Source: Bacteroidetes bacterium HGW-Bacteroidetes-5 (lineage in GTDB: Bacteria > Bacteroidota > Bacteroidia > Bacteroidales > UBA932). From it: DNA of 64,000 nucleotides. Each line of letters starts with the position of its first letter. Positions within the stretch are counted from its first letter, which is position 1. Position numbers and translations under genes: made by a program. This document shows positions 3,029 to 63,171 of the stretch, one piece after another. The notes beneath the pieces were generated by a model, which made no database searches, was not told the DNA's origin, and saw nothing but the letters and a program-made list of their open reading frames with translations. The stretch is taken from contig PHDC01000002.1 of NCBI GenBank assembly GCA_002842515.1, forward strand, positions 190,744 to 254,743, in the 5' to 3' direction.

Positions 3029-3802
3029 AAGGTTACGGGTAAAAAGCCGCGGGCGATAATTCCGGTGCATCTCTATGGGATGCCTGCCAAAATGGATGAG
3101 ATTTTGGAGGTTGCGGGCAGATATGGTATTCCGGTGCTGGAGGATGCTGCAGAGGCTTTGGGTTCGAGGTATAAGGGGCAGTTTTGCGGTACTTTTGGGG
3201 AGTTTGCCTGTTTGTCGTTTAATGGGAATAAGATTATTACGACGTCGGGCGGGGGTGCGTTGGTTTGCAGGAGTGCAGATGAGGCTGGCGTTACTAAGTT
3301 TCTGGCTACTCAGGCTCGTGATAATGCTCCTCACTACCAGCACTCGTCTGTTGGCTATAACTACAGGCTGAGTAATATTTGTGCCGGTATTGGGCGTGGG
3401 CAGATGTTGGTTCTTAACCAACACATCGCCGCCCGCCGGGAGAACAACCAAAAATATATGCAGATGCTAAAAAACGCTCCGGGTATCTCATTCCAAGATA
3501 ACCCAACAACAGATTTCGAATCTAACAAATGGCTCACCTGCATCATAATCGACCCAAAAAAGGCCGGCTACACCCGTGAAGATCTCCGCAAAAAAATGGA
3601 TGAGCACAACATTGAAACCCGCCCCCTCTGGAAACCGATGCACCTCCAACCAATCTTCCACGAATACCCATTCTACGGCAACGGCACCAGCGAAGAACTC
3701 TTCAACCACGGCCTCTGCCTACCCTCCCACCCCACACTCACCCAAAACGACCTTCAACGCGTGGTGGAACTAACCTTGCCAAGCATCGTGGGGCATCGCT
3801 GA
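3029..3802 (+). pseudogene. 5'-truncated DegT/DnrJ/EryC1/StrS sugar aminotransferase fragment; C-terminus supplied by a repeat element
   Basis: KVTGKKPRAIIPVHLYGMPA, EDAAEALGS, SFNGNKIITTSGGG. In-frame stop at 3017-3019, so the N-terminal part is absent. Last residues LTLPSIVGHR are read from the family-A element. Confidence 0.85.
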
Positions 3803-3832
3803 TTATCAGCGATCTATTTTTTGAGCGCGTTA
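3771..3832 (+). repeat. Family-A REP-like element (TAACCTTGCCAAG...GCGCGTTA)
   Basis: Core also at 4177, 6150, 6468, 8185, 18600, 19971, 26863, 40066-40126 and 63169; internal hairpin ATCGCTGAT-T-ATCAGCGAT. Confidence 0.85.
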
Positions 3833-4005
3833 TTTAACATAACTTTTACTTGTAAGAAGAGGAGCGCACACACACCAATGGAGTTTTTGTTAAGATGCAG
3901 TTAGTTAAGTATTTGTAAGAGGTCAGCTTTTTTGTGCCTTTAAGCAATGTGTTGTTTTGTAAATACTTAACAAAAACTCCGTTGGTGTGCAAGCCGGCCA
4001 CATAA

Positions 4006-4040
4006 CCGCGAAGCGTAACACACCCGCGTAGCGGACCATA
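4006..4040 (+). repeat. GNA-triloop mini-hairpin pair
   Basis: CCGC-GAA-GCGT and CCGC-GTA-GCGG, same unit type as 17793, 26897 and 38255. Confidence 0.6.
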
Positions 4041-4058
4041 CACAAACTCCATTGGAGT

Positions 4059-6467: not shown

Positions 6468-6505
6468 GAACCTTGCCAAGCATCGTGGGGCATCGCTGAT
6501 AATCA
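6468..6505 (+). repeat. Family-A element
   Basis: GAACCTTGCCAAGCATCGTGGGGCATCGCTGATAATCA; preceded by GCA-loop hairpins at about 6400-6432. Confidence 0.85.
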
Positions 6506-6625: not shown

Positions 6626-7095
6626 CCAACAGATGGCAAAAAGTACACTATCAATGCAGGATCCTGATAAATCTTCTGCATTAATGGCTACTGCGGATAC
6701 TAAGCCGTCAATTCTGCTTAAAGGTGACAATCCCAGACTTATTGATGAGTGGCAGATGGCTCCGGTATTATGGGATGCTGTACGATTTGAGGTAGATCGC
6801 CGTCAAGCAGTGGGACAATTTATTTTAACAGGTTCGGCTGTGCCTAAAGACAATGCTACGGCGCATACAGGCACTGGTAGAATTTCTCGTATGCTGATGC
6901 GTCCTATGAGTTTGTATGAATCAAAAGAGTCAAATGGAGAGGTGTCGTTAAAGGCGCTCTTTGACGGGGAGCAAGAGATTTCTGTTCGAATCACTTTGTA
7001 CACGCGATATGCGGATATATCTTCAGGCCAACGATGGTGATGTTTACCACTATCGAGATAAAAATGGCCTCGAGTCTGATATGACTGTTAGCCTT
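6626..7095 (+). pseudogene. Internally deleted AAA+ ATPase (DUF4143-type) remnant
   Basis: LIDEWQ Walker B and FILTGS present; Walker A missing. Jumps at about 6980 to C-terminal FLFESLCTRDMRIY..HYRDKNGLESD in another frame. Confidence 0.75.
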
Positions 7096-8187
7096 ATTGT
7101 CGGAACGCGTGGCGTTGGAAAGACAACAATGATGCTTCAGCATATCAGTATGAATTATGACATTAATTCGCCTTCTGTACTCTATGTCTCTTTGGATAAT
7201 TTATGGTTTTCAAGCCACTCACTGTTGGAGCTTGCAGATGAGTTTCACAAAAACGGCGGAAAAGCTCTTTTTTTGGATGAGGTGCATAAATATCCCGGAT
7301 GGTCAAGGGAGATAAAAAACATCTACGACTCTTATTCGGAGATGAAAGTCGTTTTCACGGGCTCTTCTATGCTGGATATATATAGTTCCGGTGCAGATCT
7401 TAGCCGAAGGGCAATCAAATATACTCTAAACGGTATGTCACTAAGAGAGTATCTTGATTATGAGCATAAAATCAAAATAGCACCGGTAACACTCAGTGAC
7501 TTACTAGCAGATCACATTCCGTTATCAATTGAACTGGCAAAATCTTTCCGGCCGGTTGCTATATTGAAAGAGTATCTTAAATACGGATATTTTCCATACT
7601 ATAAAGAGGACAAAGAGGGTTATTTTAACCGGGTTGCCGAAACCATCAACACAGTGATTGAAGTGGACATACCGGCAAATATAGATATTGAATATCATAC
7701 CATTATCAAAATCAAGAAGCTATTTTCCATCATCGCTGCGAGTGTTCCATTTAAACCAAACATAAGTAAACTGGCAGAACAGACTGGGACAACAAGACCA
7801 AGTCTCCTCCATTATCTTGATGCACTTGAAAAGGCTCAGGCAATACTCTTGCTGGATAAAGAAGCTACGGGTCTTAAAAGATTGGTTAAGCCAGAAAAGA
7901 TATATCTGGGCAATACCAATTATGCTTATGCCTTCTCCGGAGATAATGTTAACATTGGTAATCTGAGAGAGACTTTCATCTATTCAATGTTAAGTGCGAC
8001 AAATAAAGTCGCTTACTCAGATAAAACTGATTTTACAGTCGATGGTAAATATCATTTTGAAATAGGAGGCAAAGAGAAAAACCAAAAACAGATTTCCGGT
8101 CTCAAAGAGGCGTATATTGTTAAAGATAATATAGAGACAGGATATTTAAATCAAATACCTCTCTGGATGTTCGGGCTGCTGTATTAA
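7081..8187 (+). CDS. AAA-family ATP-binding protein, N-terminally truncated and fused to the upstream remnant
   Basis: GTRGVGKT Walker A, LFLDEVHKY Walker B, FTGSS; native N-terminus absent. Confidence 0.7.
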   Translation: MTVSLIVGTRGVGKTTMMLQHISMNYDINSPSVLYVSLDNLWFSSHSLLELADEFHKNGGKALFLDEVHKYPGWSREIKNIYDSYSEMKVVFTGSSMLDIYSSGADLSRRAIKYTLNGMSLREYLDYEHKIKIAPVTLSDLLADHIPLSIELAKSFRPVAILKEYLKYGYFPYYKEDKEGYFNRVAETINTVIEVDIPANIDIEYHTIIKIKKLFSIIAASVPFKPNISKLAEQTGTTRPSLLHYLDALEKAQAILLLDKEATGLKRLVKPEKIYLGNTNYAYAFSGDNVNIGNLRETFIYSMLSATNKVAYSDKTDFTVDGKYHFEIGGKEKNQKQISGLKEAYIVKDNIETGYLNQIPLWMFGLLY

Positions 8188-8230
8188 CCTTGCCAAGCAT
8201 CGTGGGGCTTTATTAATAAACAGCGCGTTA
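8185..8230 (+). repeat. Family-A element filling the whole gap between two convergent stop codons
   Basis: TAACCTTGCCAAGCATCGTGGGGC..CAGCGCGTTA; terminal TAA/TTA are the stops of 7081-8187 and 8228-9502. Confidence 0.85.
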
Positions 8231-17201: not shown

Positions 17202-17699
17202 ATGAGAGGGTTTATGAGAAAGCTTGTGAGAAAATTTGGAAGAAAACTTGTGAGAGTACTTGTTGGCAAGAGGTTGCCCAAAGGTTGCAAGGAGATAGAG
17301 AACTCCGTTGCATTCAAAATTGTTGAGGAGAGTCTTAATGAGGGTGTGCCGGTGAAGATGACCGTAAGAGGGGATAGTATGTTTCCAACTCTTGCCGGAG
17401 GTAAAGATCAAGTCACTCTTCACCCATTTACCGAGAAAGAGTCTCTCTCTGTTGGCGATGTGGTACTATTCAGATACAAAAAAGGGTATCTATTGCACAG
17501 AGTTATTGAGATACCTAATAGTGAATCAAAAATTCCCGGGGCAGACTCCCCCGTATATCTCAAAGGAGACGCACTCAACACAATCGAGATGGCAACCATA
17601 AGGGACATCCTGGCCATTGCCCACTTTAAACAACACTCCCCCACCTCCCTTTTTTGGAAAAGAACTGCCAGTGTTTTGAGAAAAGTGCTAATAATCTGA
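17202..17699 (+). CDS. S24/S26-family serine peptidase
   Basis: VRGDSMFPTL, GDVVLF, LLHRVI, LKGD; start uncertain (repeat-derived N-terminus); C-terminus read from a B2 element. Confidence 0.75.
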   Translation: MRGFMRKLVRKFGRKLVRVLVGKRLPKGCKEIENSVAFKIVEESLNEGVPVKMTVRGDSMFPTLAGGKDQVTLHPFTEKESLSVGDVVLFRYKKGYLLHRVIEIPNSESKIPGADSPVYLKGDALNTIEMATIRDILAIAHFKQHSPTSLFWKRTASVLRKVLII

Positions 17700-18702: not shown

Positions 18703-20001
18703 ATGAAAAGTGACGGCGCTTCTGAGCGAAAAGAGCCTAAAGAAGATTTAAGACACGAGGCCTGTCTTAGAGATTTATTGATTGAGATTACTGCAGATTT
18801 TATAAATATCCCTCTTGAACAGGTTGATAAGAAAGTCAATTTGGCTCTTAAAAAAATGGCGCAGTTTGTCAATGCAGATCGTTCATACACCTTCGATTAC
18901 GATTGGGAGAATGATGTTTGCAACAATACTTATGAGTGGTGCGCACAAGGGATTACTCCCGAAATTGGTAATCTGCAAAATCTTCCTCTCTATGTGCTCA
19001 AGGAGTGGGTGGTAGCCCATAAAAAGGGGGAATCTATGTATATTCACAATGTTCTTGATTTGCCGGATGGGATTGGAAAAGATGTTCTTGTATCACAGGG
19101 CATTAAAAGTTTTATTACAGTTCCGATGCTCGCAGGAGAGAGGTGTATAGGTTTTGTTGGATTTGATTCTGTGAGAGATTATAGATATTACTCAGATAAC
19201 GACCAGCAGATTCTTAAGATTTTTGGTCAAGTGCTGGCAAATGTAAAGATTCGAAAAGAGATGATCGATAATCTTGTGGTGGCAATAAAAAAGGCAGAAG
19301 AGAGCAACAGACTTAAGACTGCATTTATTCAAAATATTTCACACGAAATTCGAACGCCATTGAATGGAATTCTTGGTTTCAGCCAATTGATTGTAGATGA
19401 AACCATTCCTCAAAGCGAAAGAAAGCAATATTTCAAATTAATGCAGCAAAACAGCGATCGTCTCTTGCAAACGATCAACAACATAATGGACATTTCCGAG
19501 ATAACTGCAGGGTCAATTATACCTGTGAAAGAGAGTGTACATATTGGAATGGTATTGAATGATCTCTCCGAAAATCTTATTTCTAACTGTTTAACCGGCA
19601 ATGTTAAGATAATAACAAAGATTCCTGTCGGCTACGAGGAGCTTCGCATATTGACAGATCAAAAGCTCTTTACCAAAATCTTTACACAACTACTGAGCAA
19701 TGCACAAAAGTTTACCGAAGAGGGCTCCATCACTTTTGGTTTTGAAGTATCCGATGAATTGGTAACGTTTTTTGTAAAAGATACCGGAAAAGGGATATCT
19801 GCAGATAAACTTGATTTCATCTTCAAGCCTTTTATTCAAGAAGATACCTCAATAACTCGTGCACACGAAGGGAACGGGCTTGGGCTGCCAATCGCAAAGG
19901 GGCTGGTCGAACTTCTTGGTGGCAAACTTTGGGTTGAGTCCGAGCCAAAAAAGGGGACAAATTTTTATATGACCTTGCCAAGGGTCGTGGGGCTTAGTTG
20001 A
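18703..20001 (+). CDS. GAF-domain sensor histidine kinase
   Basis: GAF region; NISHEIRTPLNGI (H-box), VKDTGKGI, GNGLGLPI; tail TLPRVVGLS read from a family-A element. Confidence 0.9.
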   Translation: MKSDGASERKEPKEDLRHEACLRDLLIEITADFINIPLEQVDKKVNLALKKMAQFVNADRSYTFDYDWENDVCNNTYEWCAQGITPEIGNLQNLPLYVLKEWVVAHKKGESMYIHNVLDLPDGIGKDVLVSQGIKSFITVPMLAGERCIGFVGFDSVRDYRYYSDNDQQILKIFGQVLANVKIRKEMIDNLVVAIKKAEESNRLKTAFIQNISHEIRTPLNGILGFSQLIVDETIPQSERKQYFKLMQQNSDRLLQTINNIMDISEITAGSIIPVKESVHIGMVLNDLSENLISNCLTGNVKIITKIPVGYEELRILTDQKLFTKIFTQLLSNAQKFTEEGSITFGFEVSDELVTFFVKDTGKGISADKLDFIFKPFIQEDTSITRAHEGNGLGLPIAKGLVELLGGKLWVESEPKKGTNFYMTLPRVVGLS

Positions 20002-21606: not shown

Positions 21607-23907
21607 CTACCAATTAAATCGTATCCTCAAAAAGAGGTTTCGGCCGGGTTCTATACTGATTTCGCCGCGGTTGGTGGAGAGGTGGTTTGTGTAGCTTGTG
21701 TCGGTGATGTTGTCTATCCCGGCAAAGAGTTGTAGGCGGGTGGCGCCTATTGTAAACTCGCGGGTGTTGTAGAACATATCGAGGCGTAAGTATCCGGGTG
21801 TTTCGCTCTCGCCGGCGGCAATTTTGTCCTGCTTGGCTACTGCGGTTAGATGCATCTCCAGTGAACCGAACCTGTAGTTGGAGTAGCGGGCCCCTACCCC
21901 GCCTTTTAGTGGCGGTATCATAGGCAGATTGCCGGTGCTGCCCGCTACGCCGCCGGCGCCACTATCTTCTCCCATATCTTTTCCGCGTACATATGCTCCG
22001 GAGAGCATCACTGTCCAGTTGCGGTAGAGATTGTAATCCAGCTGGAAGTCGAAACCGTACAGGAGTGCTTTGCTGATGTTGGAGTTAATAAATGCCGGGA
22101 GGGTTTGGGGCTGGGAGCCGGATGTGAGTGTGTATGTGAACTCGCCGGGTATTTCGGCAATCATATTTGTGATGCTGTTAATGTAGACTCCGGCCTGCAG
22201 GGTGAAATTCTTTTTCCAAACTCGCACACCCATATCTGCAGAGTACCCCTTCTCCGGCATCAGAGCCGGGTTGCCCAGGCGTACATAGCTTCCCAGGTCT
22301 ATATATTTGAATCGCTCTTCCAGCGACGGCGCCCGGAATGAGCGGGCTACATTTAGGGAAAGATCTGTGTTGCTGTCTATTTTATAGAGGATTCCGCCGT
22401 TGGCGCTCCAGGAGATGCTACCCTCATTGCCGGCCTCAAAGGTTAGGCGCTGGGTAGATGGTGCGTCGTTTCGTACTCCGTTAAGGATAATATAATCAAC
22501 ATCATAGCCCTTTTTATTTGTTATCTGCACTCCATCTATACGGGCTCCCGTGATAATTGTGAGGCGTTTATCGAGCAGATAGTTTTCGTTTTGGATAAAG
22601 AAGCCTGCGTTGTTGGATCTTGATTCGGGGATTGGTGTCTCGCCGCGCTCGATATTGTTGGTCACAAGAGTTGTGCCGGCAGGGTTGTTGACCTTTACGG
22701 TTATAAACCTCTGGCGAGAGGTGGTAAGTTTGCGTCCCCACAAATCTGCGCCCAAAATAAGAACGTCATTTTCGGACATTTTTAGGGTCCCCTGTAGCTG
22801 AACTCCGTTTGTGAGGTGCTCTCCGGTTGGGGTCATCAATGTGGGTTCGGTAAGCTGGGTATTTCCGTTTGGAAGTGTGGCGCGCACAACTGTGTTTGGA
22901 ATAAGTGTTACATCTCTGTCTATGAACTGGTTAAAGTAGCTCAATTTGAGCGAGGTGAACACCTGCGATATCTTGGTAATCTCGTAACTTGCCGCAAAAA
23001 GGTCTCTTGAGATGTTTGAGTAGGTCGCTTCGGAAGTTAGCGGAAATGCGTCGCCGCCCGGAATTCCCACATTTGTAGATCTATTACGTTGATATTGTAT
23101 CTTAAGTAGATGGTTAGCAAATGGTTTCACGCCAATGCTTGTCCTAAAATTGTTGGTGGTAAACTGGCTGTTTGGCAAAACACCGCGTGGCGTGCGCATA
23201 TCGCCGGCGTTGGTGTAGGTCCCGCTTAGACTGAGGTACCACTTTTGCGACCCTGTGTTCACGGAGGTGTAGCCCGAGAAGAGGCTGTTTGCAGATGCAT
23301 AGCCGGAGATTACACTGCCGCCGATGTAGAGTTTATCTGCAAAGTACCCCCCTTTGGTTATGATGTTCACGATTCCGCCCATTGCTCCGGTTCCATAGAG
23401 TGAAGATTGTGCCCCCTTGATCACCTCAACTCGCTCTACATCATTCACATCCACCATACTGAGCGATGCGGTGAGGTCGGTCGCGGTCTCAACCCGGTTG
23501 CCGTCTATGAGTGTAACAAGGCGGCTCTCCCCCATCCCGCGAATGTTGATGCTTGTTGCCCAGATTCCGTCGCCTCCCATTGAGATACCAGGCTGGTTAT
23601 TAAGTACATTGGAGATTGTTTGTGAAGATCGTTTCTGATAAACTGCGCTTGTCACAATGTTGATGCTGGCCGGCAGCTCTTTGATCTTTCTCTCTACTTT
23701 TATTACTGAGACTACAACTTCGCCCAGCGCAACGGTGTCCGGCCGGGCCGTCTTGTGATTCTGGTCAATAAATTGCCCGCTTAGCGTGCTGTCCGGCCTG
23801 CTTTGATTGGTCTCTTGCCCTGCTTGGCCGGAATTTTGTCCTGACACAACAGGCAGAAGTGCGACCATACAGATGGCCGTCAAAATGGAGATCTTTGCTC
23901 TATTCAT
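21607..23907 (-). CDS. TonB-dependent receptor
   Basis: Signal peptide, plug (INIRGMG..LIDG, ERVEVIKGAQSSLYG..GGIVNIITK), C-terminal FNW. Confidence 0.9.
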   Translation of the reverse strand: MNRAKISILTAICMVALLPVVSGQNSGQAGQETNQSRPDSTLSGQFIDQNHKTARPDTVALGEVVVSVIKVERKIKELPASINIVTSAVYQKRSSQTISNVLNNQPGISMGGDGIWATSINIRGMGESRLVTLIDGNRVETATDLTASLSMVDVNDVERVEVIKGAQSSLYGTGAMGGIVNIITKGGYFADKLYIGGSVISGYASANSLFSGYTSVNTGSQKWYLSLSGTYTNAGDMRTPRGVLPNSQFTTNNFRTSIGVKPFANHLLKIQYQRNRSTNVGIPGGDAFPLTSEATYSNISRDLFAASYEITKISQVFTSLKLSYFNQFIDRDVTLIPNTVVRATLPNGNTQLTEPTLMTPTGEHLTNGVQLQGTLKMSENDVLILGADLWGRKLTTSRQRFITVKVNNPAGTTLVTNNIERGETPIPESRSNNAGFFIQNENYLLDKRLTIITGARIDGVQITNKKGYDVDYIILNGVRNDAPSTQRLTFEAGNEGSISWSANGGILYKIDSNTDLSLNVARSFRAPSLEERFKYIDLGSYVRLGNPALMPEKGYSADMGVRVWKKNFTLQAGVYINSITNMIAEIPGEFTYTLTSGSQPQTLPAFINSNISKALLYGFDFQLDYNLYRNWTVMLSGAYVRGKDMGEDSGAGGVAGSTGNLPMIPPLKGGVGARYSNYRFGSLEMHLTAVAKQDKIAAGESETPGYLRLDMFYNTREFTIGATRLQLFAGIDNITDTSYTNHLSTNRGEISIEPGRNLFLRIRFNW

Positions 23908-25433: not shown

Positions 25434-26172
25434 AAAGCACTACATATCCATTGCTTCTGTAGTTGTGATGCTCGCCATTTGGCAGAGCGCAGCCTTCTAC
25501 TTTGGCTCGGCGCTCATAGTCCCTCAGCCCAAAGATACTTTTCTGACTGTTTTTAAGCTAATTGGAGATTTAGATTTTATTCAGGTTGTGGGGGCAACAG
25601 TGCTGCGCGGGCTCTTTGGGTTTTTCATATCTGCAGTGCTGGGCCTGTTTGTAGGAGTTCTCTCCGGGTTACGACCAAATTTCAACACCTTTATCTCCCC
25701 ATTCTTGGTCACCATCCGCTCCGTTCCCGTAATCTCCCTCATCTTGTTGGCACTTATCTGGTTCAACCCCAATGTGGTACCAATCTTTATCGCAATGCTC
25801 ACAATGTTCCCTTTTATCTGCACCAATGTTGCAGATGGAATAAAGAGTGTAGATCCCAACCTTATCCAAATGGCTAATTTTTACCGGGTTGATAAAAGGA
25901 AGATTTTGCGTTGTGTATATATTCCTGCCATTATGCCCTTTATTATCAGCGGCGCTTCAAGTGCAATGGGCATCGGCTGGAGAGCAATAATTATCGGCGA
26001 GGTGCTGAGCCAGCCAAAATATGGCATCGGCACGAAGATGCAGTCAGCTCAAACCTACCTCAATGTGGAGGCCGTAATCGCCTGGACCCTTATCGCCATA
26101 ATTATCAGCTTTGCTTTTGAAAAAATTATCCGACTCTACGAAAAACGAGTTTTAAAATGGAGGGCTCAATAA
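25414..26172 (+). CDS. NitT/TauT-family ABC permease
   Basis: Hydrophobic helices; IGWRAIIIGEVL. Confidence 0.85.
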   Translation: MKISLTKKHYISIASVVVMLAIWQSAAFYFGSALIVPQPKDTFLTVFKLIGDLDFIQVVGATVLRGLFGFFISAVLGLFVGVLSGLRPNFNTFISPFLVTIRSVPVISLILLALIWFNPNVVPIFIAMLTMFPFICTNVADGIKSVDPNLIQMANFYRVDKRKILRCVYIPAIMPFIISGASSAMGIGWRAIIIGEVLSQPKYGIGTKMQSAQTYLNVEAVIAWTLIAIIISFAFEKIIRLYEKRVLKWRAQ

Positions 26173-26894
26173 TGACAAAATCAAAAGCAGGGAACTTGCA
26201 GATGGATAGCTCGCAGATGGAGAGTTCTAAGATAGATCGCTCGCATATGGGTTTGCAGATAAAAGATCTCAATAAGAGTTTTAACGGGATCACCCTCTTC
26301 AAGGATTTCAATCTCAGTTTGGCAGAGAGCACCATCACCTGCATTCTGGGCCCTTCGGGTTGCGGGAAGAGCACACTGCTCAACATTATCGGCAAAGTAA
26401 TTTTGCCCGACAGCGGCTCCCTCATTGGTTTCGATGATAAGATCTTCTCATATATTTTTCAGGAGCCGCGGCTGCTGCCCTGGAAAACGGTTCGAGGTAA
26501 TATCGAATTTGTGCTTGGCGGGAATATGTCGCCCTCTCAAAGAAGGAGTGAGGCAGATAGGCTCATTCATAAAGTTCAGTTAGAAGGTTTTGCCAACTAC
26601 TACCCCTCACAGTTGAGCGGCGGTATGCGCCAGCGTGTCTCAATTGCGCGCGCCTTCGCCTGCCACTCCGATATCATCCTGATGGACGAGCCGCTCAACG
26701 GACTGGATGCCTCCCTAAAACAGAATATGATAGAGTGGTTTTCCCAAATCTGGAAAGAGGACAGGCGCACCGTAATCTTCGTAACCCACAATGTAGACGA
26801 AGCCCAGCTACTCGGCGACGAAATCATCGTCCTAAGCAACCCACCCGTGCAAGTTGTGAAGAGAACCTTGCCAAGCATCGTGGGGCTTTCTTAA
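26172..26894 (+). CDS. NitT/TauT-family ABC ATP-binding protein
   Basis: GPSGCGKS, LSGGMRQR, LMDEP; TAATG coupling; tail TLPSIVGLS read from a family-A element. Confidence 0.9.
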   Translation: MTKSKAGNLQMDSSQMESSKIDRSHMGLQIKDLNKSFNGITLFKDFNLSLAESTITCILGPSGCGKSTLLNIIGKVILPDSGSLIGFDDKIFSYIFQEPRLLPWKTVRGNIEFVLGGNMSPSQRRSEADRLIHKVQLEGFANYYPSQLSGGMRQRVSIARAFACHSDIILMDEPLNGLDASLKQNMIEWFSQIWKEDRRTVIFVTHNVDEAQLLGDEIIVLSNPPVQVVKRTLPSIVGLS

Positions 26895-38158: not shown

Positions 38159-38232
38159 TTTTATTATTTAATTAATGATTTCACCTATTAATATCCAGCA
38201 AATGCCAAAAGGTGTTACCACCCAGAGATAAT

Positions 38233-38748: not shown

Positions 38749-38750
38749 TA

Positions 38751-38782
38751 TTTGGTTTATAAAATAAACTTATTTATATTTG
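38751..38782 (+). promoter_or_regulatory. Bacteroidota housekeeping promoter abutting the B1 element
   Basis: TTTG-N20-TATATTTG. Confidence 0.6.
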
Positions 38783-38911
38783 CATCGTGCAACAGATATT
38801 AAAAGCAGTGAGCATCTGCAAATAGTTCAGTTGCACTTTTTTAGGGCATTTTGGTTTATTTTATAAACTTATTTACAAATCAATACTAATCAAAATTGAA
38901 CAGAAAATAAT

Positions 38912-39090
38912 GAACAAAACCTGAAAAAAAAATGAAAAAATCCTGAACAAAACCTGAATAAATCCTGAATAAATCCTGAATAAATCCTGAATAAAACCTG
39001 TACAAAACCTGAAAAAAAAATGAAAAAATCCTGTACAAAACCTGAAAAAAAAATGAAAAAATCCTGAACAAAACCTGAATAAAAATTAAA
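38912..39090 (+). repeat. A-rich VNTR (AAA(A/T)CCTGAA-based 11-bp units with higher-order repeats)
   Basis: Repeated AAATCCTGAAT and AAAACCTGAAAAAAAAATGAAAAAATCCTG blocks. Confidence 0.85.
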
Positions 39091-39106
39091 CAAAAAAATC
39101 AAGATT

Positions 39107-39748
39107 ATGGAAGAGAAAAATTTATCAAAAAACGAAAGTCTGGAGCTGATTGCCCGGATGATTAAGGAGACTCGCAACAGTATGGAGCGGGGTGGCGGCA
39201 ACATTTATCTGCTTTGGGGGTATTTGTGGCTGGTTGTGGCTTTGACTATTTATGGGCTTTTGCTTTATACAGGCGATTATAGGGCTACTTGGTTGTGGTT
39301 TGCGATGCCGCTTGTTGGTTATCCTGTAATGTATTTTATGTTAAAGAACAGAAAAAGAAGAGCCACAACTTTTGTAGAGGCTGTGATTTCCAAGATTTGG
39401 ATTGTGATTGGAGTTTGTGCCCTGCTGCTATCGCTCTTTATGTTTGTGAACCACAACGCTTTCCCTATTATGTTTATTATGGCGCTTCTAATTAACGCCG
39501 GAGTGGCTATGAGCGGTTTGGTTATTAAATTTAAGCCAACTATTATAGCCGGGTTTGTGGGGATTCTTTTGAGTTTCTCTCTGCTGCTTATTCCGGGGAT
39601 TAATCAGATTTTGGTGTTTGCTGCCTTTTCTGTTATTATGCTCATCATTCCGGGTCATATTCTCAATGCGGCCAGCCGAAAAGCCATTGCGGCCGGCCTG
39701 GATGCTACAGAGAGTAGTTCAAAGAGTAATAAGGTGAGCAATGTTTAA
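39107..39748 (+). CDS. Multi-pass membrane protein
   Basis: About six hydrophobic segments; ESLELIARMI N-terminus; paired with a wHTH gene. Confidence 0.8.
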   Translation: MEEKNLSKNESLELIARMIKETRNSMERGGGNIYLLWGYLWLVVALTIYGLLLYTGDYRATWLWFAMPLVGYPVMYFMLKNRKRRATTFVEAVISKIWIVIGVCALLLSLFMFVNHNAFPIMFIMALLINAGVAMSGLVIKFKPTIIAGFVGILLSFSLLLIPGINQILVFAAFSVIMLIIPGHILNAASRKAIAAGLDATESSSKSNKVSNV

Positions 39749-40022
39749 AGAGTTGGACCCGCTGCTGCATTCGCAATTGCGGTTGGCAGTAATGTCTTTG
39801 CTCATTTCGCTTGAGGAGGCAGATTTTGTATATCTGCGGGAGAAGAGTGGTGCGACGGCCGGCAACCTGAGTGTTCAGCTTGAAAAGCTTGCACAGGCAC
39901 AATACATTGAGGTAGACAAGGGCTACTCCGGCAAACGCCCGCGCACAACCTGCCGCATAACTCCCGCCGGCCGCGCCGCATTTGAGGTTTATGTAGATGC
40001 TTTGCGCAGTTACACGGAGTGA
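39741..40022 (+). CDS. Winged-helix transcriptional regulator (MarR/ArsR-like, HTH_34 type)
   Basis: LHSQLRLAVMSLL..TAGNLSVQLEKL..YIEVDK..RTTCRITPAGRAAFEVYV. Confidence 0.85.
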   Translation: MFKELDPLLHSQLRLAVMSLLISLEEADFVYLREKSGATAGNLSVQLEKLAQAQYIEVDKGYSGKRPRTTCRITPAGRAAFEVYVDALRSYTE

Positions 40023-40065: not shown

Positions 40066-40126
40066 TGCCAAGGGTTGTGGGACTTTGCTGATAATCAGCA
40101 AAGTCCCACAACCCTTGGCAAGGTTA
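40066..40126. repeat. Full palindromic family-A element (27-bp perfect arms, 1-nt centre) between convergent genes
   Basis: TGCCAAGGGTTGTGGGACTTTGCTGAT-A-ATCAGCAAAGTCCCACAACCCTTGGCA; overlaps the stop at 40124. Confidence 0.9.
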
Positions 40127-42286
40127 CAGGGCAAAACGCCAGATTAGTTTTGCAAGGATGGTTGTGCGTGTGAGTTTTAGGGTGTTGTTTGCTGTGTCAA
40201 TATTTTGATTCACGACAAAGTAGAAGAAACTGCCTATTTTTGGAATCCAGTTTATCCGATAGTTTAGAATTACCTCATCGTCTTCATTGTTCCACTGAGC
40301 AAAGAGCGATGAGTTTAGTTTTGGGTTCAATGCGTAATTTACTCTTCCTCCAAATTCATTTACCTTGAAATCTCCCTGCGGCAAATCCAGAGTGTTGTGA
40401 CTCCAGTCTAAACCTAAGCTTAGGTGTCTGTTCAGGCTCAGGTTAAGGTACATCTCAATGTTAGATCTTTTTCCGGTATAGAAGCTTCCTGCTTCAAATT
40501 CTACCCCTGCATTGAGGTTTCTGCCGTCAAACGAGTGAAACTCTGCACTGAAATTGTTGTCGTTGTATTGGCCTTTTGGAATAACTACGCCATCTATAAG
40601 AGGGAAATCTTCGTGAGGGTTATCCTGAGTAAACTCATAATTAAGTCCAAAATAGTCTCCGCTGCTGAAATTGATCCCGAATGGTCTTACATCCAGTGAG
40701 AAAGTCTCGGCAAGACCTGTTTTATCATTAATAAAATACTCAAGATCATATAATTGAAATGAAAATGAGCGTATATAGCTTGGCATCTTCTTAAACCTTG
40801 GTTCAAATTCAAGCTCTGAGTAGATTCGCTTAAAATTGGAACGGTTAACAAACCCCAGAGTCGGATTAAAATTCTCTTGAATGGAATTAATTCCGGCATT
40901 AAAACTCCAGATATCGTTGGGGTAAAACAGGAAAAAATGATAAGTTGCGTTATCCTTGTTCTTTGCAGATTCCTGCCCCGGATTATCTAAAGTGATTGCT
41001 CCGGAAAAGCCGGCCATTAAGTTTTTGTCCCCCAGAAACTTTGATGTTTTGTATGTGAAGTCTGTTCCATATGTGGCGCTGTATTTGCCGTTACTGAATT
41101 TTTGAGTCGATATAAATCCAATCCCGGACTCTTCGAATATGTCCTGTTTAATCCTGATAATGGATGAGTTAGAACTACTTATACCCTTAAGAGCAGCCGT
41201 CTGTAGATTCATTATCCCAATACTGGTCTTTCCAATCTTGCCAAAAAGCCTCCCTCCCCCAATTATCGGAATTACAGACTCCTCCTCGATACCGATTCTT
41301 CGGCTATAAAAAAGCCGTGCAGATGAAACACTCATATCAAAGTAGCTGCTCCCCTCCAGAAAGAACTGTCTCTTCTCCGGGTAGTAGATAGAGAACCTGG
41401 AGAGGTTAACCTCTCTGCGGTCAGATTCAACCTGAGCAAAGTCGGTGTTGAGGGTAAAGTTGAGCTTCATCGTGGGGCTGATATCGTAGTTGACCTCCCC
41501 TCCTATTTTGAAGGCAGAATTTGTAAATCCATATTGTCTCTCTATTCCGGTGGTTATGTATGGGGTGATCTCAACTCTATCCTTCTGCTTAATATCTCTA
41601 ATACCCTCCAGTTTGCCACTTTGAGAAATATTGTCAATGCTGTAACTGCGAGACCATCCCTGCCAGCGAACCTGCTCATTCTTTCTGCGAATATTTCTCT
41701 CAAAGTTAACCGACCACTTTTGAATGCTATCCCTCTTAAACTTTAGGGTAGAGAATGGAATTGCAAACTCTGCATACCAACCATTTTGGTCACGAGTAAC
41801 CCTAACATCCCACACTCCGTTCCAGTCTTTATTGAATCTGCCGCCATCTCCTCCAAGCCACACATCTGCCATCGCCCCGTTTGGATTAGTTATAAAGAGA
41901 TATCCGTTTCGATTATCGTTAAAGGGGGATATCATAATCTCGATATCGTCGTCGCCCGACCAGTTAAAATCTCTGGACATCTCCTTTGCAGATATCCTGC
42001 CTGGCTCAGAGTCAAAACACCACACTCCAAAATAGATGTTGTGTGTATCATAAAGGACAGCCACTTTTGTCTGCTCTGTAGGTTGCCCCCCCTCCGATGG
42101 CTCACGTTGAGTAAAATTGGTTATTGGAAAAGCACTTTGCCACACTCTCTTTTTCAAATCTCCGTCTATGTGAATTGGTTCAGCCACTCTTGCGGCCTTA
42201 AGTGTATCGGGAATTGAAGTTTGAGATTTTAATGAATTAAAATAAAACAGCACAAATGCAAATATTACAAGATTTCGAATAACCAT
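40124..42286 (-). CDS. Outer-membrane protein with CBM9-like N-terminus and DUF5916-like barrel
   Basis: IHIDGDL..W..FTQREP..TKVAVLYD; NTDFAQVESD, PEKRQFFLEG; C-terminal aromatic. Confidence 0.8.
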   Translation of the reverse strand: MVIRNLVIFAFVLFYFNSLKSQTSIPDTLKAARVAEPIHIDGDLKKRVWQSAFPITNFTQREPSEGGQPTEQTKVAVLYDTHNIYFGVWCFDSEPGRISAKEMSRDFNWSGDDDIEIMISPFNDNRNGYLFITNPNGAMADVWLGGDGGRFNKDWNGVWDVRVTRDQNGWYAEFAIPFSTLKFKRDSIQKWSVNFERNIRRKNEQVRWQGWSRSYSIDNISQSGKLEGIRDIKQKDRVEITPYITTGIERQYGFTNSAFKIGGEVNYDISPTMKLNFTLNTDFAQVESDRREVNLSRFSIYYPEKRQFFLEGSSYFDMSVSSARLFYSRRIGIEEESVIPIIGGGRLFGKIGKTSIGIMNLQTAALKGISSSNSSIIRIKQDIFEESGIGFISTQKFSNGKYSATYGTDFTYKTSKFLGDKNLMAGFSGAITLDNPGQESAKNKDNATYHFFLFYPNDIWSFNAGINSIQENFNPTLGFVNRSNFKRIYSELEFEPRFKKMPSYIRSFSFQLYDLEYFINDKTGLAETFSLDVRPFGINFSSGDYFGLNYEFTQDNPHEDFPLIDGVVIPKGQYNDNNFSAEFHSFDGRNLNAGVEFEAGSFYTGKRSNIEMYLNLSLNRHLSLGLDWSHNTLDLPQGDFKVNEFGGRVNYALNPKLNSSLFAQWNNEDDEVILNYRINWIPKIGSFFYFVVNQNIDTANNTLKLTRTTILAKLIWRFAL

Positions 42287-47289: not shown

Positions 47290-48339
47290 TTAGTTTACAG
47301 TTTTAAGTTTAACAACATATTTTACTATGGAGTATGGTAAAACCTCCGAAGTAATCACTTTATCTCTTAGCAAATCTGCCCTTGCTTTTTGCGGAATTAT
47401 GCAAAGGCTTTGCTTAAACGCTATGCTTGAAGGCATTATAAGCACTGCAGTACCTCCCGCCTTCATCAACCTGAGCGACTCCTCAAGACCCTCTACTGCC
47501 TGGCCATTGCCAATATAAAACATCACATCCTCCACGCTCTTGATTATTGTATCATTAAGGTAAGATCTTGTAAAATCTACCTTAACCCTATCTCCGCTAA
47601 ATGGTTTCTCACCTGCGCCGGGGATGCTGTCTACAAAGCAAAGTCCCGACGGGTATTGCATAAACGATTCATATCTTGCAGATGCGAAGCTGAAAATTGA
47701 ATCTCTCTCAATATCGTCTATCTGAGTTTGCGTCTGAACGCCAACCACCTCTATTTCAATTATTAGATTGCTGTTTACAGGCAGATACGATGTACTGTAA
47801 TTCCCGTAAGCCAGGTAGGATGGCATATAAAAGCGATACCTCTGGCCGACACTCATAAGTTTAATACCGTAGTCGAGCCCTTCGGGGATAATCGTCTGGC
47901 TCAGCAGACGGAATTTTGCGGGATCCGCTTTTGGTGCAGCACCACTACCCACCCCTTCGTTACTCTCAATTACGGTTCCGTTGAGCAGAGATATTGTGTA
48001 GTAAAAGCTGACTATATCGTTTTGCATTAATCCGGGTGCCGGATAAGTATTGCTTTGAATTGCACCTGTACCTGTATGTGCAGAACCTGCCTGTGCGCTA
48101 CTGTTGAGGGTTATGCCGGATAAAGGTAAATAATAGAAACCGGCACTATGCCTTTGTGCCTGAATATTATTGTCTGACAAATACTTGCCAATAATCTCAT
48201 CGTCTATCTTCTGCTGTTTTGCGTAGTCACTCTCCAACCCAGAACACGAAACTGCCACCAGCCCGCCCACTACAAAACTAAAAACAAATAAAGCCGAACT
48301 TAAAACTCTCCTTGAAACGGAACTTGAAAAACTCTTCAT
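47290..48339 (-). CDS. Two-domain FKBP-type peptidyl-prolyl isomerase lipoprotein
   Basis: IIPEGLDYGIKLM..YMPSYLAYG; second domain QAVEGLEESL; lipobox VSC. Confidence 0.85.
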   Translation of the reverse strand: MKSFSSSVSRRVLSSALFVFSFVVGGLVAVSCSGLESDYAKQQKIDDEIIGKYLSDNNIQAQRHSAGFYYLPLSGITLNSSAQAGSAHTGTGAIQSNTYPAPGLMQNDIVSFYYTISLLNGTVIESNEGVGSGAAPKADPAKFRLLSQTIIPEGLDYGIKLMSVGQRYRFYMPSYLAYGNYSTSYLPVNSNLIIEIEVVGVQTQTQIDDIERDSIFSFASARYESFMQYPSGLCFVDSIPGAGEKPFSGDRVKVDFTRSYLNDTIIKSVEDVMFYIGNGQAVEGLEESLRLMKAGGTAVLIMPSSIAFKQSLCIIPQKARADLLRDKVITSEVLPYSIVKYVVKLKTVN

Positions 48340-48540
48340 AACAAAAATGGAAATTTAATAGAATTAATAACTTGATAAATAAATTTAAAACAAAACCGGT
48401 AAAGAACTTGAAGAATTATTCGAATAAATCTACATACTATACGCACACCACATTCAAAATGCTACAACTCAAGCAGAGTTTGTCTAAGAAAAAAATTATC
48501 ACTACACTTGTACGCAGTAATCCGGTATATTCATAGTAAA

Positions 48541-60385: not shown

Positions 60386-60396
60386 CCAACACAAGA

Positions 60397-63171
60397 ATGA
60401 AAATGATAAAGAAAATATTAGTTCCGGCGCTTATCTCTTGTTGCGTTATTGTATTTAGTACCATAAGCTCAAACGCCCAAAGCACAAAAGTAAAAAGTAC
60501 AAGTACCACCCAAGCAAATAGCACGGTCAAAAAAGCAGACAGTACCGCTAAGCTTACCCCTTACCAGAAGCTTTTCAACAAGAAGAAGAGTGTGAAAACA
60601 TCTACAGGTATAATTACGCTTCATATTGTAGATGGTAAATTATATTTTGAACTTCCTGTTAAGTTAGTAGATAAGAGCTTTTTAATGAGCTCTCTGGTAG
60701 ATAATGTGAGTAATATGAGTCTAAGCTATGCGGGGCAAAGGGCAGCAAGATCTCAGCACATCTGTTTTACAAAGACAGATTCGCTGGTGCAGATACGCCT
60801 GGTACCGATTACTAAGATTGTAGATTCTCAGGATAGCGGAATTCAGGAGGCTGTGAACAGAAGTTCGTTGCCTTCTGTATTGGTATCCAAACCGATACTG
60901 GCCTTTAACGCAGATAGCAGTGCAGTCGTTTTTGACGCAACATCGTTTTTTGTCTCAGACAGCAAGTACATCGGCACCTTGAATGCCTCCTCATTTGGTG
61001 GATTTATCCAAAAGGTATCTACATTCAGTAAAGAGCTGAGCGCGCTAAAAGATGTGGAGTCCTATGAAAACAATGTTGCTGTGATAAGCGATATGACATA
61101 TACCTTCAAAACCTTCTTCCTGGGAATGGAGTCGGGTGGAGCAGAGTATGCCACAGTTGAGCTTAGAACCACTCTTACCCTTTTACCCCAGGAGAGATTC
61201 CGTCACCGTTACGGTGACTACAGGATTGGTACTTCAGTAACTGAGTTTGAGAAGTTCGACAGCAAAATTCAGGGTTCAGAGTTAAATTACCTTGCCAACA
61301 GATGGAGGCTTGAGCCTAAGGATGCAAACATATTTCAACTTGGAGGGCTGACAGAGCCGAAAAAACAGATTGTGTTTTATATAGATACTCTGTTTGTTCC
61401 TGAGTGGAGAGAGGCCATAAAGAGGGGATTGCTTAAATGGAATGATGCTTTTGAAAAAATTGGTTTTAAAGATGTTATCCTGGTATACGACTTTCCGTCA
61501 AAATCACAGGACCCTAAGTTCAGTGCGGGAAATATCGCTTACAATTGTGTGCGCTATGCGCAGACACCATCACGGAACATTGCAAGACAAATTAACATTG
61601 ACCCAAGAAGTGGTGAGATTTTAAGTGCTTCAATTCTCTTCTTTCGTGACTCTCCGGTAACCCTGCAAAGGGAGCGTATCTATCAGACCGCTGCTGTTGA
61701 GCCGGGTGTTAGGGGATATGAGCTTCCTCAAGATCTTATGTGCTCTTCCATAGAGATGGCAATGATGAGGGAGATGGGCTTTTGTCTGGGTTTGACTGCA
61801 AATCTGGCCGGATCTTCCTGGATGGATGTAGACTCTTTGAGATCTGCAACATTTACACAAAGGGAGGGGATTACCTCCTCTGTAATGGATCAAATCAGGT
61901 ATAACTATATTGCCCAACCGGGTGATATTGAGAAGGGTGTCAAGTTGGCTGCAGATAATTTGGGTGTTTACGACTACTATGCAATCAAGTGGCTCTATAA
62001 ACCTATATTTAAAGCCAAGACGCCTGCTGCCGAGGTTGCGGTTCTAAAGGAGATGATATCCGAAAAGATTAATGACCCTCGTTACTTCTATGGAAAAGAG
62101 CAAAGCTGGAGTGCATATTTTGACCCTCGCTCGGTTATTGAAGATTTGGGTAACGATAAGATTAAGGCTGCCAAATATGGGATCAACACTCTTAAATATG
62201 TGGCTGAGAATGCCGCAAAGTGGGTAAATAAAGATGAGGCAGATGAGTCCTACAGAGAGCTCTTCATAGACTTTATCTTCCTTAAACTTTACGACTACTA
62301 CAGGAGTGTAATGGTTAACATCGGTGGTATTGAGATAAACCGGAAATATGAGGGTGACCCTATGCCCTCCTATAAGGTGCTGGACCGCAAGATTCAAAAG
62401 GAGAGTCTTCTTTATATGCTTAACCAGAGTGAAGATCTTGCCTGGGTAGACAATAAAGATCTGCTTTTAATGAGTGGAATGAATCCAAACTTCTCCAGCT
62501 ATCTGGCAAACAACCTTGTCAAACTCGCTTTCCAGCGTGTGGCGATGGTTGCATTTGCGCAAAATGTGAATGCCGGGCAAAATGCTCCCGGGCAAAATGC
62601 TACAGGTCAGAATCCTGCCGGGCAAAATACTATAGGCCAAAATCCTGCCGGGCCGTATACATTAGATGAGATGTTTACAGACCTCACAGCGTTCTCTCTT
62701 AAAAATATGAACAAAGGGTTGGACCCTACTGAGGCGCAAATAGCAACTCTCTTTAACACTGCTCAATTTCTTCTCGCAAATTCGAACCTGCCTATCGTAA
62801 TAAAAGCCAAAGAGAAGAACAAGGCAGCCTTCCAGTTTGTAGAGGATAATAACTTTATCTCCTACAATAACTTAAGAGCAAAATGCTTTCCTGACGAAAA
62901 TATCTGGGAACCGGGTAATGAAAACACCTGGGAACCGGTTAACGGAACAGATAATTTTGATTTGGCAAACATAGGTTCCACAGGAGCAGGTTTTGAGCAA
63001 CTCGTCTCCCTTAAATTCCTTATAAACCGGGACTACTCCGATGTTTACTACAAACATCTATTAGAGTTGAGAGCTAAACTTAAAATCTGCCTTAAAAAAG
63101 CAAAATCCCAAAGCTCAAAAGATAGAATCGGTTACCTGATGCTCTCCATAGACAAAGGGATAGGGGAATAA
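60397..63171 (+). CDS. Metalloprotease paralogue lacking all three zinc-ligand histidines
   Basis: Same fold markers (IDPRSGEIL, SVMDQ, EDLGND) but motif reads REMGFCLGLTA at 61768-61800. Confidence 0.85.
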   Translation: MKMIKKILVPALISCCVIVFSTISSNAQSTKVKSTSTTQANSTVKKADSTAKLTPYQKLFNKKKSVKTSTGIITLHIVDGKLYFELPVKLVDKSFLMSSLVDNVSNMSLSYAGQRAARSQHICFTKTDSLVQIRLVPITKIVDSQDSGIQEAVNRSSLPSVLVSKPILAFNADSSAVVFDATSFFVSDSKYIGTLNASSFGGFIQKVSTFSKELSALKDVESYENNVAVISDMTYTFKTFFLGMESGGAEYATVELRTTLTLLPQERFRHRYGDYRIGTSVTEFEKFDSKIQGSELNYLANRWRLEPKDANIFQLGGLTEPKKQIVFYIDTLFVPEWREAIKRGLLKWNDAFEKIGFKDVILVYDFPSKSQDPKFSAGNIAYNCVRYAQTPSRNIARQINIDPRSGEILSASILFFRDSPVTLQRERIYQTAAVEPGVRGYELPQDLMCSSIEMAMMREMGFCLGLTANLAGSSWMDVDSLRSATFTQREGITSSVMDQIRYNYIAQPGDIEKGVKLAADNLGVYDYYAIKWLYKPIFKAKTPAAEVAVLKEMISEKINDPRYFYGKEQSWSAYFDPRSVIEDLGNDKIKAAKYGINTLKYVAENAAKWVNKDEADESYRELFIDFIFLKLYDYYRSVMVNIGGIEINRKYEGDPMPSYKVLDRKIQKESLLYMLNQSEDLAWVDNKDLLLMSGMNPNFSSYLANNLVKLAFQRVAMVAFAQNVNAGQNAPGQNATGQNPAGQNTIGQNPAGPYTLDEMFTDLTAFSLKNMNKGLDPTEAQIATLFNTAQFLLANSNLPIVIKAKEKNKAAFQFVEDNNFISYNNLRAKCFPDENIWEPGNENTWEPVNGTDNFDLANIGSTGAGFEQLVSLKFLINRDYSDVYYKHLLELRAKLKICLKKAKSQSSKDRIGYLMLSIDKGIGE

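Follow-up and report, generated by a model that had tools for sequence, protein, structure and literature searches.

C/A-rich synonymous tails at repeat-bearing gene ends and GRINS-like skew tracts in a Bacteroidales genome

The genome of a groundwater Bacteroidales bacterium (41% GC) contains stretches of ordinary coding DNA in which the free codon positions are driven towards G and T or towards C and A, and the 64,000-nucleotide stretch analysed here, referred to as the window, appears to hold single-copy tracts of this kind, about 200-750 bp long, that resemble the skews described for GRINS. The most regular and reproducible case is a C/A-rich synonymous tail at the 3' end of a gene whose stop codon abuts either a short repeat, element A, or intergenic repeats of other kinds. 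These tails have a median length of 126 codons (65-250 codons in the regular subclass), consist mainly of C in place of T, and leave the first and second codon positions unaltered. Twenty-two of about 240 raw skew segments genome-wide fall within the window, a roughly four-fold enrichment, and the genome's segments group into three islands. As their cause we tentatively favor a process of substitution or repair that is strand-asymmetric and acts locally, at repeat-bearing gene junctions.

A sharp flip between the two kinds of tract is found on the plus strand in a 5'-truncated DegT/DnrJ/EryC1 aminotransferase fragment (frame open 3020-3802; Pfam PF01041, profile positions 109-357 of 360). The original prediction that G/T-rich synonymous sites here give way to C/A-rich ones is borne out by third-position counts of A7 C15 G52 T57 in 3020-3412 (84% G/T; G/T fraction at third positions, GT3, 0.83-0.84) and A33 C65 G18 T13 in 3413-3799 (about 23% G/T; GT3 0.23). 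The flip persists at four-fold sites, where 53 of 63 are G or T in the first block (A2 C8 G26 T27, with A almost absent) and 41 of 54 are C or A in the second (A12 C29 G7 T6). The change-point lies 128 codons upstream of the stop (2dLL 94), and the stop codon is overlapped by an element A copy on the plus strand (3774-3815) comprising CCTTGCCAAGCATCGTGGG, a short stem-loop, and a T-run. Codon positions 1 and 2 are also shifted (GT12 0.55 vs 0.37), and base counts give GC and TA skews of +0.33 and +0.20 in 3040-3410 and of -0.36 and -0.36 in 3420-3770. The flip falls on a recombination breakpoint, at which nucleotide identity to the ortholog in genome G010 drops from 93-97% to 53-83%.

This coincidence, together with the higher identity of the G/T-rich block than of core proteins (only 81-90% identical to those of G010), the three islands, and a low-divergence block of 1.7 kb around the repeats downstream of ddl, is what would be expected if the skewed stretches had been recombined from donors already so composed, with the repeats serving as homology anchors and no local process operating in this genome. 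We consider this improbable, since it merely shifts the question of origin to the donor; moreover, DegT orthologs are G/T-rich throughout the genus, to varying degrees, and the core genes ddl and nqrF keep their tails across species despite synonymous turnover elsewhere.

Genome-wide, the tails follow a consistent course. In successive 20-codon steps back from the stop, GT3 is 0.35, 0.27, 0.35, 0.39, 0.41, and 0.47, G/T content at positions 1 and 2 is flat, and the skew, which lies on one side only, decays over about 300 bp. The average four-fold composition is C 0.39, T 0.17, A 0.29, and G 0.15, against C 0.19, T 0.32, A 0.32, and G 0.16, a transition-like shift in which purine content is about constant. 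The association with repeats is graded: GT3 of the last 60 codons is 0.515 where no repeat lies downstream and falls to 0.482, 0.443, and 0.404 as repeat depth rises; it is 0.40 with element A (p=7e-9) and 0.463, a weaker tail, with repeats other than element A (p=4e-4). When genes are ranked by the C/A-richness of their last 80 codons, seven of the top ten end at element A, as do only 27 of all 1787 genes with 200 codons or more. Strict third-position C/A tracts number 19 where 1.3 are expected, 14 of them abutting a stop codon, and C rises to 0.60 in the strongest while A falls to 0.28 and G to 0.05; strict G/T tracts number 13 against 3.3 expected. These mirror-image G/T tracts are found at a distance from gene ends, and in non-coding DNA too, as in the G-rich spacer that follows an element at C1:1786358. 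Synonymous divergence is lower within the tails, and in other genomes of the genus a tail recurs, weakly, around copies of element A.

Several general causes were rejected. Chance is ruled out by shuffles and genome percentiles, and amino-acid composition does not explain the tails, whose positions 1 and 2 are flat and whose skew remains at four-fold degenerate sites. A general effect of gene starts or ends is contradicted by GT3 and four-fold G/T that are flat, genome-wide, against distance to start and stop codons. Operon ends and convergent gene ends without repeats have no effect (GT3 0.503-0.517). The chromosomal replication skew, about ±3% in GT3, is too weak, the ribosomal-protein cluster has a genome-like four-fold composition that speaks against translational codon optimisation, and recoding from the mRNA 3' end by a reverse transcriptase of the DGR type was discarded because no RVT_1 match was found in the genome.

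Within the window, nearly all of the regions originally listed as skewed are so at four-fold sites as well, and their keto skew over all nucleotides exceeds the 0.1-1% tails of the genome. Element A, CCTTGCCAAG..TCGTGGG, has 53 copies in the genome, seven of them in the window, and its consensus, ggaGAtAA CCTTGCCAAGcaTCGTGGG GCTTTGtTGATtAtcAGc, comprises a conserved 19-mer head and a short stem; an Rfam search of the window gave no match for it, and a known RNA family was thereby set aside. On the plus strand, copies end gene 26157-26894 (copy at 26866-26884), in which a tail of 100 codons occupies 26592-26891 (GT3 0.35 vs 0.57 in the body), and directly follow gene 60397-63171 (copy at 63172-63190), whose tail of 125 codons occupies 62794-63168 (GT3 0.37 vs 0.58). 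Gene 18703-20001, overlapped at its end by a copy at 19973-19991, has a borderline tail (2dLL 10.5), and gene 7009-8187, with a copy at its stop (8188-8206), has no significant C/A tail (GT3 0.65 in the body and 0.52 in the tail; 2dLL 4.9). A further plus-strand copy (6471-6489) has no long open reading frame abutting it.

The full palindromic version of the element (40066-40123; 26-bp stem, -34 kcal/mol, z -12.5; minus-strand head at 40105-40123) lies between two convergent C/A-tailed genes. Upstream of it, the small plus-strand gene 39741-40022 is C/A-rich over 39900-40022 (GT3 0.19; G or T at 2 of 17 four-fold sites in 39900-39980), and on its other side the minus-strand gene 40124-42286 has a coding-strand C/A-rich tail of 151 codons at 40127-40579 (GT3 0.37 vs 0.55 in the body; 1 of 12 four-fold sites G or T in 40140-40200). 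It is this arrangement that looks, on the plus strand, like a miniature origin.

A strong coding-strand tail is also found in the minus-strand gene 21607-23907 (21610-22150; 14 of 93 four-fold sites G or T, positions 1 and 2 normal), which has no downstream repeat, so tails can occur without one. The end of the plus-strand gene 17202-17699 is likewise C/A-rich (17540-17650; GT3 0.19, 1 of 18 four-fold sites G or T). G/T-rich tracts on the coding strand occur over codons 87-149 of the minus-strand gene 34849-36090 (35638-35831, a linker and membrane helix; positions 1 and 2 G/T 0.71, 28 of 35 four-fold sites) and in the plus-strand membrane protein gene 39107-39748 (39180-39342; positions 1 and 2 0.65, 20 of 25 four-fold sites). 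In three regions (35640-35830, 39190-39330, and 48230-48340) positions 1 and 2 are strongly G/T-rich too (0.65-0.74). Since each encodes a membrane helix or a linker, amino-acid composition contributes in part to their skew. Tandem repeats occupy 38217-38376 and 38875-39137. The plus-strand polarity that had been proposed to hold irrespective of coding strand is equivalent to a coding-strand pattern in which genes are C/A-rich at the 3' end and G/T-rich in their 5' or central portions.

The original prediction went further and treated each boundary as a miniature replication origin, at which nicking and strand displacement from hairpin elements would expose single strands on both sides to deamination (C>T and A>G). 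The repeat association on which this rests is upheld, the tail being much weaker at boundaries free of elements; furthermore, the sign of the skew fits G/T enrichment of the strand whose 5'>3' direction leads outward from the element, the genome contains Y1-HUH nuclease genes, and individual sites, at C1:1786358 and the ddl junction, are C/A-rich to the left and G/T-rich to the right. The average effect, however, is one-sided. Keto skew is -0.13 upstream of element A and about 0 downstream, with no symmetric change of sign, and the nine genes that begin just past an element have a GT3 of 0.576 vs 0.529 (p=0.13). The right-hand G/T half is thus not significant and the miniature origin is not established; its appearance can be attributed to two convergent tails meeting, or to a tail meeting a G/T-rich gene. 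Hairpin formation is poor for most copies of element A (fold z about 0 to -0.8), 40066-40120 being the only strong one, and the flanks of the hairpin-rich F2 MITE (about 20 copies) have no mean skew, which also rejects palindromic MITEs in general as the cause. Tails that occur without an element, and a C enrichment greater than C>T and A>G changes on the opposite strand could give, make this mechanism distinctly improbable.

Three genes in the genome encode RAYT-like Y1-HUH proteins, one of them next to a tail-bearing copy of element A. These Y1_Tnp proteins pass the Pfam cut-off and have REP-associated tyrosine transposase as their best family match, with scores below the NCBIfam RAYT cut-off (34-56 vs 80 bits); the gene at C2:136727-137584 is flanked by element A on one side only. 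A role for such a nuclease at the tails may be envisaged.

Comparison of orthologs gives two results that disagree on whether the tails depend on repeats. Among ddl orthologs, the tail is found only in the five to six species with downstream repeats, and the tail, the repeats, and the tail of the next gene form the 1.7-kb block, which is 95-100% identical to genome G009, compared with 85-92% identity in the flanks around it. In nqrF, by comparison, most species have the tail, among them species in which a plain terminator and no element A follows the gene, and in some it runs on into C/A-rich non-coding DNA. These nqrF tails indicate that the repeat is not necessary and may merely accumulate at such sites. 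In the alignment of the nqrF tail, A/C differences between clades are as many as T/C differences, although their polarity is uncertain as the two outgroups may be sisters. Both tails were kept while other synonymous sites turned over, which points to a persistent force in the lineage.

Selection on mRNA ends, the alternative offered in the original prediction, is still a live rival and the main one. A C-rich stretch poor in G and U would make the RNA unpairable, and at the end of a transcription unit it might provide a putative Rho loading (rut-like) site or a platform for a single-stranded RNA binder, or might allow the repeat or terminator that follows to form its structure unhindered, the repeats being merely tolerated or useful as pausing or stabilizing hairpins. 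The tails adjoin the stop codon and, with very few exceptions, share the orientation of the gene, which makes DNA polarity and RNA polarity inseparable; C lies far above G (0.39 vs 0.15 on average, 0.60 vs 0.05 in strict tracts) and replaces A as well as T, the nqrF tail is retained in most species of the genus regardless of downstream sequence, and synonymous divergence is reduced. Nevertheless, operon and convergent ends in general have no tail, the G/T tracts, the 84% G/T block of DegT, and the G-rich non-coding spacers are left unexplained, and average tails lose T far more than A, a difference not expected from selection for C alone. Near-saturation across at least 100 codons also seems too much for a rut site, and ribosomal-protein genes have no preference for C-ending codons, so translational selection is not involved. 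On balance we regard selection on mRNA ends as possible, if rather unlikely.

The closest precedent is GRINS, defined as duplicated regions (>500 bp, >80% identity) with an intense local G+T versus C+A skew in functional coding DNA, mainly in Streptomyces polyketide synthase genes, and presented there without a mechanism (Nivina 2021, PNAS, PMC8256042, as excerpted). In both systems the sign switches abruptly within 1 kb, third codon positions are the most skewed with a measurable pull on amino-acid composition, and there is a tie to unusually high sequence identity or gene conversion. The DegT blocks exceed the 0.15 threshold for mean absolute GC and TA skews, as does 25% of the genome, and the threshold is thus not discriminating at 41% GC. 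GC and TA skews share their sign in the named tracts and are negatively correlated genome-wide (r -0.27; -0.45 in windows with |GC skew| >0.3), indicating that intense skews in this genome are mostly of the purine/pyrimidine type and keto/amino tracts a minority. Strict membership is rejected on duplication: a search among 885 candidate regions found no second copy of at least 500 nt at ≥80% identity, and for one region a copy of 322 nt. The tracts described here are instead single-copy, in ordinary genes of a Bacteroidales genome, with a regular position and polarity beside short gene-end repeats, an arrangement not described in the excerpted text of PMC8256042.

Like REP and REPIN sequences with their RAYT (Y1-HUH) proteins, element A is a short repeated extragenic element found just past stop codons, with some copies as paired palindromes, in a genome encoding three RAYT-like proteins. 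The GTAG or CGTC tetranucleotide conserved in REP heads, according to the excerpted text of PMC3733652, is not present in the element A consensus. Most of its copies are, unlike REPs, poor hairpins, the protein matches lie below the curated cut-off, and the literature searched contains no report of codon skew beside REPs. The axis of the skew is also that of replication-associated strand asymmetry, including that of vertebrate mitochondrial DNA, in which one strand is enriched in G+T and the other in C+A, read as mutation from single-strand exposure. Those asymmetries differ from the present tracts, which are a few hundred bp long, one-sided, and track gene orientation rather than replichore. 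Finally, rut sites, described as C>G-biased in the excerpted text of PMC13650167, are C-rich, G-poor, weakly structured RNA segments near transcription-unit ends, and the tails have this bias, Rho-dependent termination here being only putative. In contrast to rut sites, the tails lie within coding sequence, are depleted of U too, are missing at most operon ends, and have mirror-image G/T counterparts.

In the local process that we favor, persistent strand-asymmetric substitution would make the free positions of coding-strand codons G/T-rich or C/A-rich, shifting amino acids to a lesser extent. Its most likely cause would lie at the DNA level, with recombination or repair tracts beginning at repeat-bearing junctions and entering the gene end, where the newly made or exposed antisense strand, which extends 5'>3' outward from the junction, would gain A>G-type changes. 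Mosaic exchange between species would then spread and juxtapose tracts, yielding abrupt flips such as that in DegT. A mutational rather than selective origin is suggested by the G/T tracts that lie off gene ends and in non-coding DNA, for which selection on RNA ends is inadequate. Against it count the strongest tracts, where C at 0.60 and A at 0.28 represent a C excess beyond what transitions yield, and the low synonymous divergence of the tails, which constraint also fits. Whether REP-like gene-end repeats, possibly serviced by RAYT-like HUH proteins, mark a chronic strand-specific mutagenesis or repair that recodes a few hundred adjacent bases of ordinary genes, and is the engine of GRINS-type skews and widespread in bacteria, is a broader conjecture that we hold to be doubtful.

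If the tails are mutational, they would represent a natural position- and strand-specific mutation process in bacteria acting over a few hundred bases, with consequences for codon-usage models, for the detection of recombination and horizontal transfer, and for dN/dS estimates, and the GRINS phenomenon would gain a concrete anchor point and an experimental handle. If they are selected, they would constitute an unusually strong synonymous-site signal at the 3' ends of Bacteroidales mRNAs and candidate Rho loading sites. Under either reading, the C/A tail tied to a repeat is simple and countable, and a search for it can be extended to other genomes.

A 5'-truncated DegT/DnrJ/EryC1 aminotransferase ORF in the window, the DegT fragment, ends in 30 bases that recur at many gene ends and define a short repeat, element A, with the consensus ggaGAtAA-CCTTGCCAAG(CA/GG)TCGTGGG-GCTTTGYTGATWATCAGC. 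The window occupies C2:190744-254743 of the source genome (G000; five contigs, 2.82 Mb, 41% GC), which carries 53 copies, 7 of them inside the window. Copies nearly always begin directly after a TAA stop codon or supply it and are co-oriented with the gene. In the simple ORF-based call used for all analyses (2,297 ORFs), genes ending at element A have a G/T share at third codon positions (GT3) that, counted back from the stop in 20-codon steps, is 0.38, 0.31, 0.40, 0.41, 0.43 and 0.47. Four-fold sites follow the same pattern. Amino-acid composition does not account for this C/A tail, as the first two codon positions remain constant at 0.46-0.51. Of the 1787 genes that are 200 codons or longer, only 27 end at element A, but these include seven of the ten whose last 80 codons have the lowest GT3 (Mann-Whitney p=4e-9). 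The tail is individually significant in 14 of 29 genes ending at element A, with a median length of 126 codons (range 65-249). A copy of element A sits immediately at the end of the gene for ribosomal protein S3 (contig C1:1375801-1376628, minus strand), which encodes a long C-terminal extension rich in Arg, Asn and Gly and has a GT3 of 0.24 in its last 78 codons.

The original prediction had placed C/A-rich DNA to the left and G/T-rich DNA to the right of many intergenic sites, each boundary behaving like a miniature origin, and it was borne out in part. What is solid is the synonymous C/A tail, which is linked to the element and lies on one side only. Nucleotide-level skew is -0.13 over the 200 nt upstream of element A, falling to 0 by about 350 nt, and is about 0 downstream; on the right-hand side, nine genes have a GT3 of 0.576 versus 0.529, a difference that is not significant (p=0.13). 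The bidirectional picture was thus not established, and its appearance arises from two other situations: two convergent genes that both have tails, as at 39900-40022 and 40127-40579 around the palindrome at 40066-40120, or a tail followed by a G/T-rich gene. That palindrome is the only element A copy with a strong hairpin, most copies folding weakly, and no Rfam family matched within the window. Nicking at hairpins followed by deamination, the specific mechanism first proposed, is the least probable of the explanations considered here and is unlikely.

The plus-strand polarity, said to hold irrespective of coding strand, reduces arithmetically to coding-strand C/A at gene 3' ends and G/T further 5', and this trend is confined to a subset of genes. 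Genome-wide, GT3 is 0.51-0.53 in all 20-codon bins, whether counted from the start or from the stop, and four-fold sites show no slope either, so that no general gene-boundary trend exists. A strict third-position scan recovered 19 C/A tracts versus 1.3 expected from within-gene shuffles, 14 of which end at most 18 codons from the stop, and 13 G/T tracts versus 3.3 expected, scattered along genes. When genes are scored for repeats of any kind in the first 150 nt after the stop, tail strength is graded with repeat depth (last-60-codon GT3 of 0.515, 0.482, 0.443 and 0.404 as depth rises), and repeats other than element A alone give 0.463 (p=4e-4). Boundaries with long spacers or convergent neighbours and no repeats show no effect (0.503-0.517). 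The flanks of F2, a MITE of ~141 bp with a strong internal palindrome (cccagttttccaaatatggaaaactggg) and terminal inverted repeats (CTTTGCCAGTGTTTGATG), show no mean skew; F2 lies at 38619-38760 and about 20 further places in the genome, often beside element A.

Raw skew segments, of which 22 of about 240 fall in the window, are grouped in three islands (C2:95-255 kb, C1:760-850 kb and C1:1760-1865 kb), and the element A effect is present within and outside them. Across the genome as a whole the correlation between GC skew and TA skew is negative (r = -0.27), so keto/amino tracts constitute a minority class. Predicted skewed regions other than the DegT fragment have whole-nucleotide keto skews within the genome's extreme 0.1-1%, and almost all remain skewed at four-fold sites. 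For some there is another partial explanation: membrane helices or linkers, with a G/T share of 0.65-0.74 at positions 1+2, are encoded at 35640-35830, 39190-39330 and 48230-48340, and tandem repeats at 38217-38376 and 38875-39137 also contribute. These two arrays (units like ctgcgcagcagaccgcaaac and aaacctgaataaatcctgaa) are themselves two raw C/A segments. At C2:160000-200000, a stretch that begins left of the window and runs into it, plus-strand GT3 shifts from low (44-50%) to high (49-58%) in plus- and minus-strand genes alike. This change of the weak chromosome-scale skew resembles that at an origin or terminus.

The DegT fragment (open frame 3020-3802, matching Pfam PF01041 positions 109-357 of 360) bears out the predicted synonymous flip, with third positions A7 C15 G52 T57 to 3412 and A33 C65 G18 T13 thereafter. 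Four-fold sites are G/T at 53 of 63 before and C/A at 41 of 54 after, A being nearly gone from the G/T block (A2 C8 G26 T27), and the switch is sharp (change-point 128 codons ahead of the stop, 2dLL 94). Orthologs in the genus are likewise G/T-rich; in the related genome G010 the share reaches 97% over a 90-codon stretch. Nucleotide identity to G010 is 93-97% over the first 130 aligned codons and 53-83% beyond the flip, where 31 of 106 amino acids differ. Because identity drops at the flip and core proteins of the two genomes are just 81-90% identical, the flip is a recombination breakpoint that joins two tracts of different history. Import of DNA that was already skewed is an improbable explanation for the tracts at large, if slightly less so than hairpin nicking. 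Very AT-rich DNA (2883-3020) truncates the gene on its 5' side, the 260-codon frame staying open; the homologous locus of G010 carries a wecA-like gene on the same contig as a more complete DegT frame, open for 337 codons.

Relatives sharing element A are MAGs such as "Bacteroidetes bacterium HGW-Bacteroidetes-8", and around copies in other genomes of the genus the tail recurs in weaker form (GT3 0.45, 0.35 and 0.44 versus 0.50-0.57; four-fold C 0.28 and T 0.22 versus 0.20 and 0.31). Three exact copies lie on LBTE01000004.1 (L054, L066), labelled 'candidate division TM6 bacterium GW2011_GWF2_37_49', which suggests a mis-binned Bacteroidales contig or transfer. The ddl tail (last-80 GT3 0.21-0.34) is confined to the five or six species whose ddl is followed by repeats, be it element A, a TIR-MITE or an F2-like element; in the roughly 22 repeat-free species the value is 0.45-0.71. 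Between G000 and G009, the ddl tail, the repeats and the convergent gene's tail form a 1.7-kb block of 95-100% identity with flanks of 85-92%, and synonymous divergence in the tail-bearing clade plateaus at a lower level in the tail (0.33 versus 0.52). Four genomes (G014, G019, G041 and G042; L038-L041) have an in-frame ddl insertion, roughly 20-120 codons long, that follows residue 218 or so, giving split matches and ORFs of 359-449 aa. The nqrF tail (0.14-0.39) is present in most species whatever follows the gene: element A, a different repeat, a plain terminator, or non-coding DNA rich in C/A. Element A is therefore not necessary; the tails can be old site-specific features where repeats come and go. 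C/A-only repeats (caccaacacgccaacatcgcaccaac...) make up the non-coding DNA after nqrF at L093 (G042) and L084/L085, and in G042 third positions are C/A-rich over the whole gene.

At four-fold sites the genome background is A 0.32, C 0.19, G 0.16 and T 0.32. Average tails (A 0.29, C 0.39, G 0.15, T 0.17) reflect essentially a replacement of T by C with purine content unchanged, and C/(C+T) at two-fold sites is 0.64 versus 0.40. Selection for C-rich, unstructured mRNA ends is a possible, second-ranked explanation. Codon optimisation was rejected because ribosomal-protein genes have genome-like composition. The strictest C/A tracts (A 0.28, C 0.60, G 0.05, T 0.06) have C above and A below what pure transitions could yield; G/T tracts (A 0.09, C 0.08, G 0.45, T 0.39) are near the transition expectation.

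No reverse transcriptase was found in the genome. Three Y1-HUH (IS200/RAYT-like) paralogs of 257-319 aa (C1:1991741-1992514; C2:136727-137584, minus strand; C1:1380554-1381513) have HUH and Y..NP motifs and a common C-terminal extension (..SFRQ(L/I)(S/A)..). They score over the Pfam Y1_Tnp cut-off and under the curated NCBIfam RAYT cut-off, REP-associated tyrosine transposase being their best named match. One is adjacent to a copy of element A, and the gene upstream of that copy has a tail.

We found no literature description of codon skew flanking REP-like repeats, and the literature citing GRINS concerns polyketide synthases only. GRINS (PMC8256042) are the closest published description, sharing with the tracts here intense GC and TA skews within coding DNA that change sign abruptly, a signal strongest at third positions, altered amino-acid use and a link to gene conversion. 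The two skews are correlated in GRINS, and in the named tracts here they have the same sign. By that paper's definition GRINS are duplicates exceeding 500 bp, and since no skewed region here has a second copy of that size, these tracts are not GRINS in the strict sense. The reading that we tentatively favour, ahead of selection on mRNA ends, is that strand-asymmetric substitution or repair at the DNA level, tied to recombination at repeat-bearing junctions, may generate the tails.
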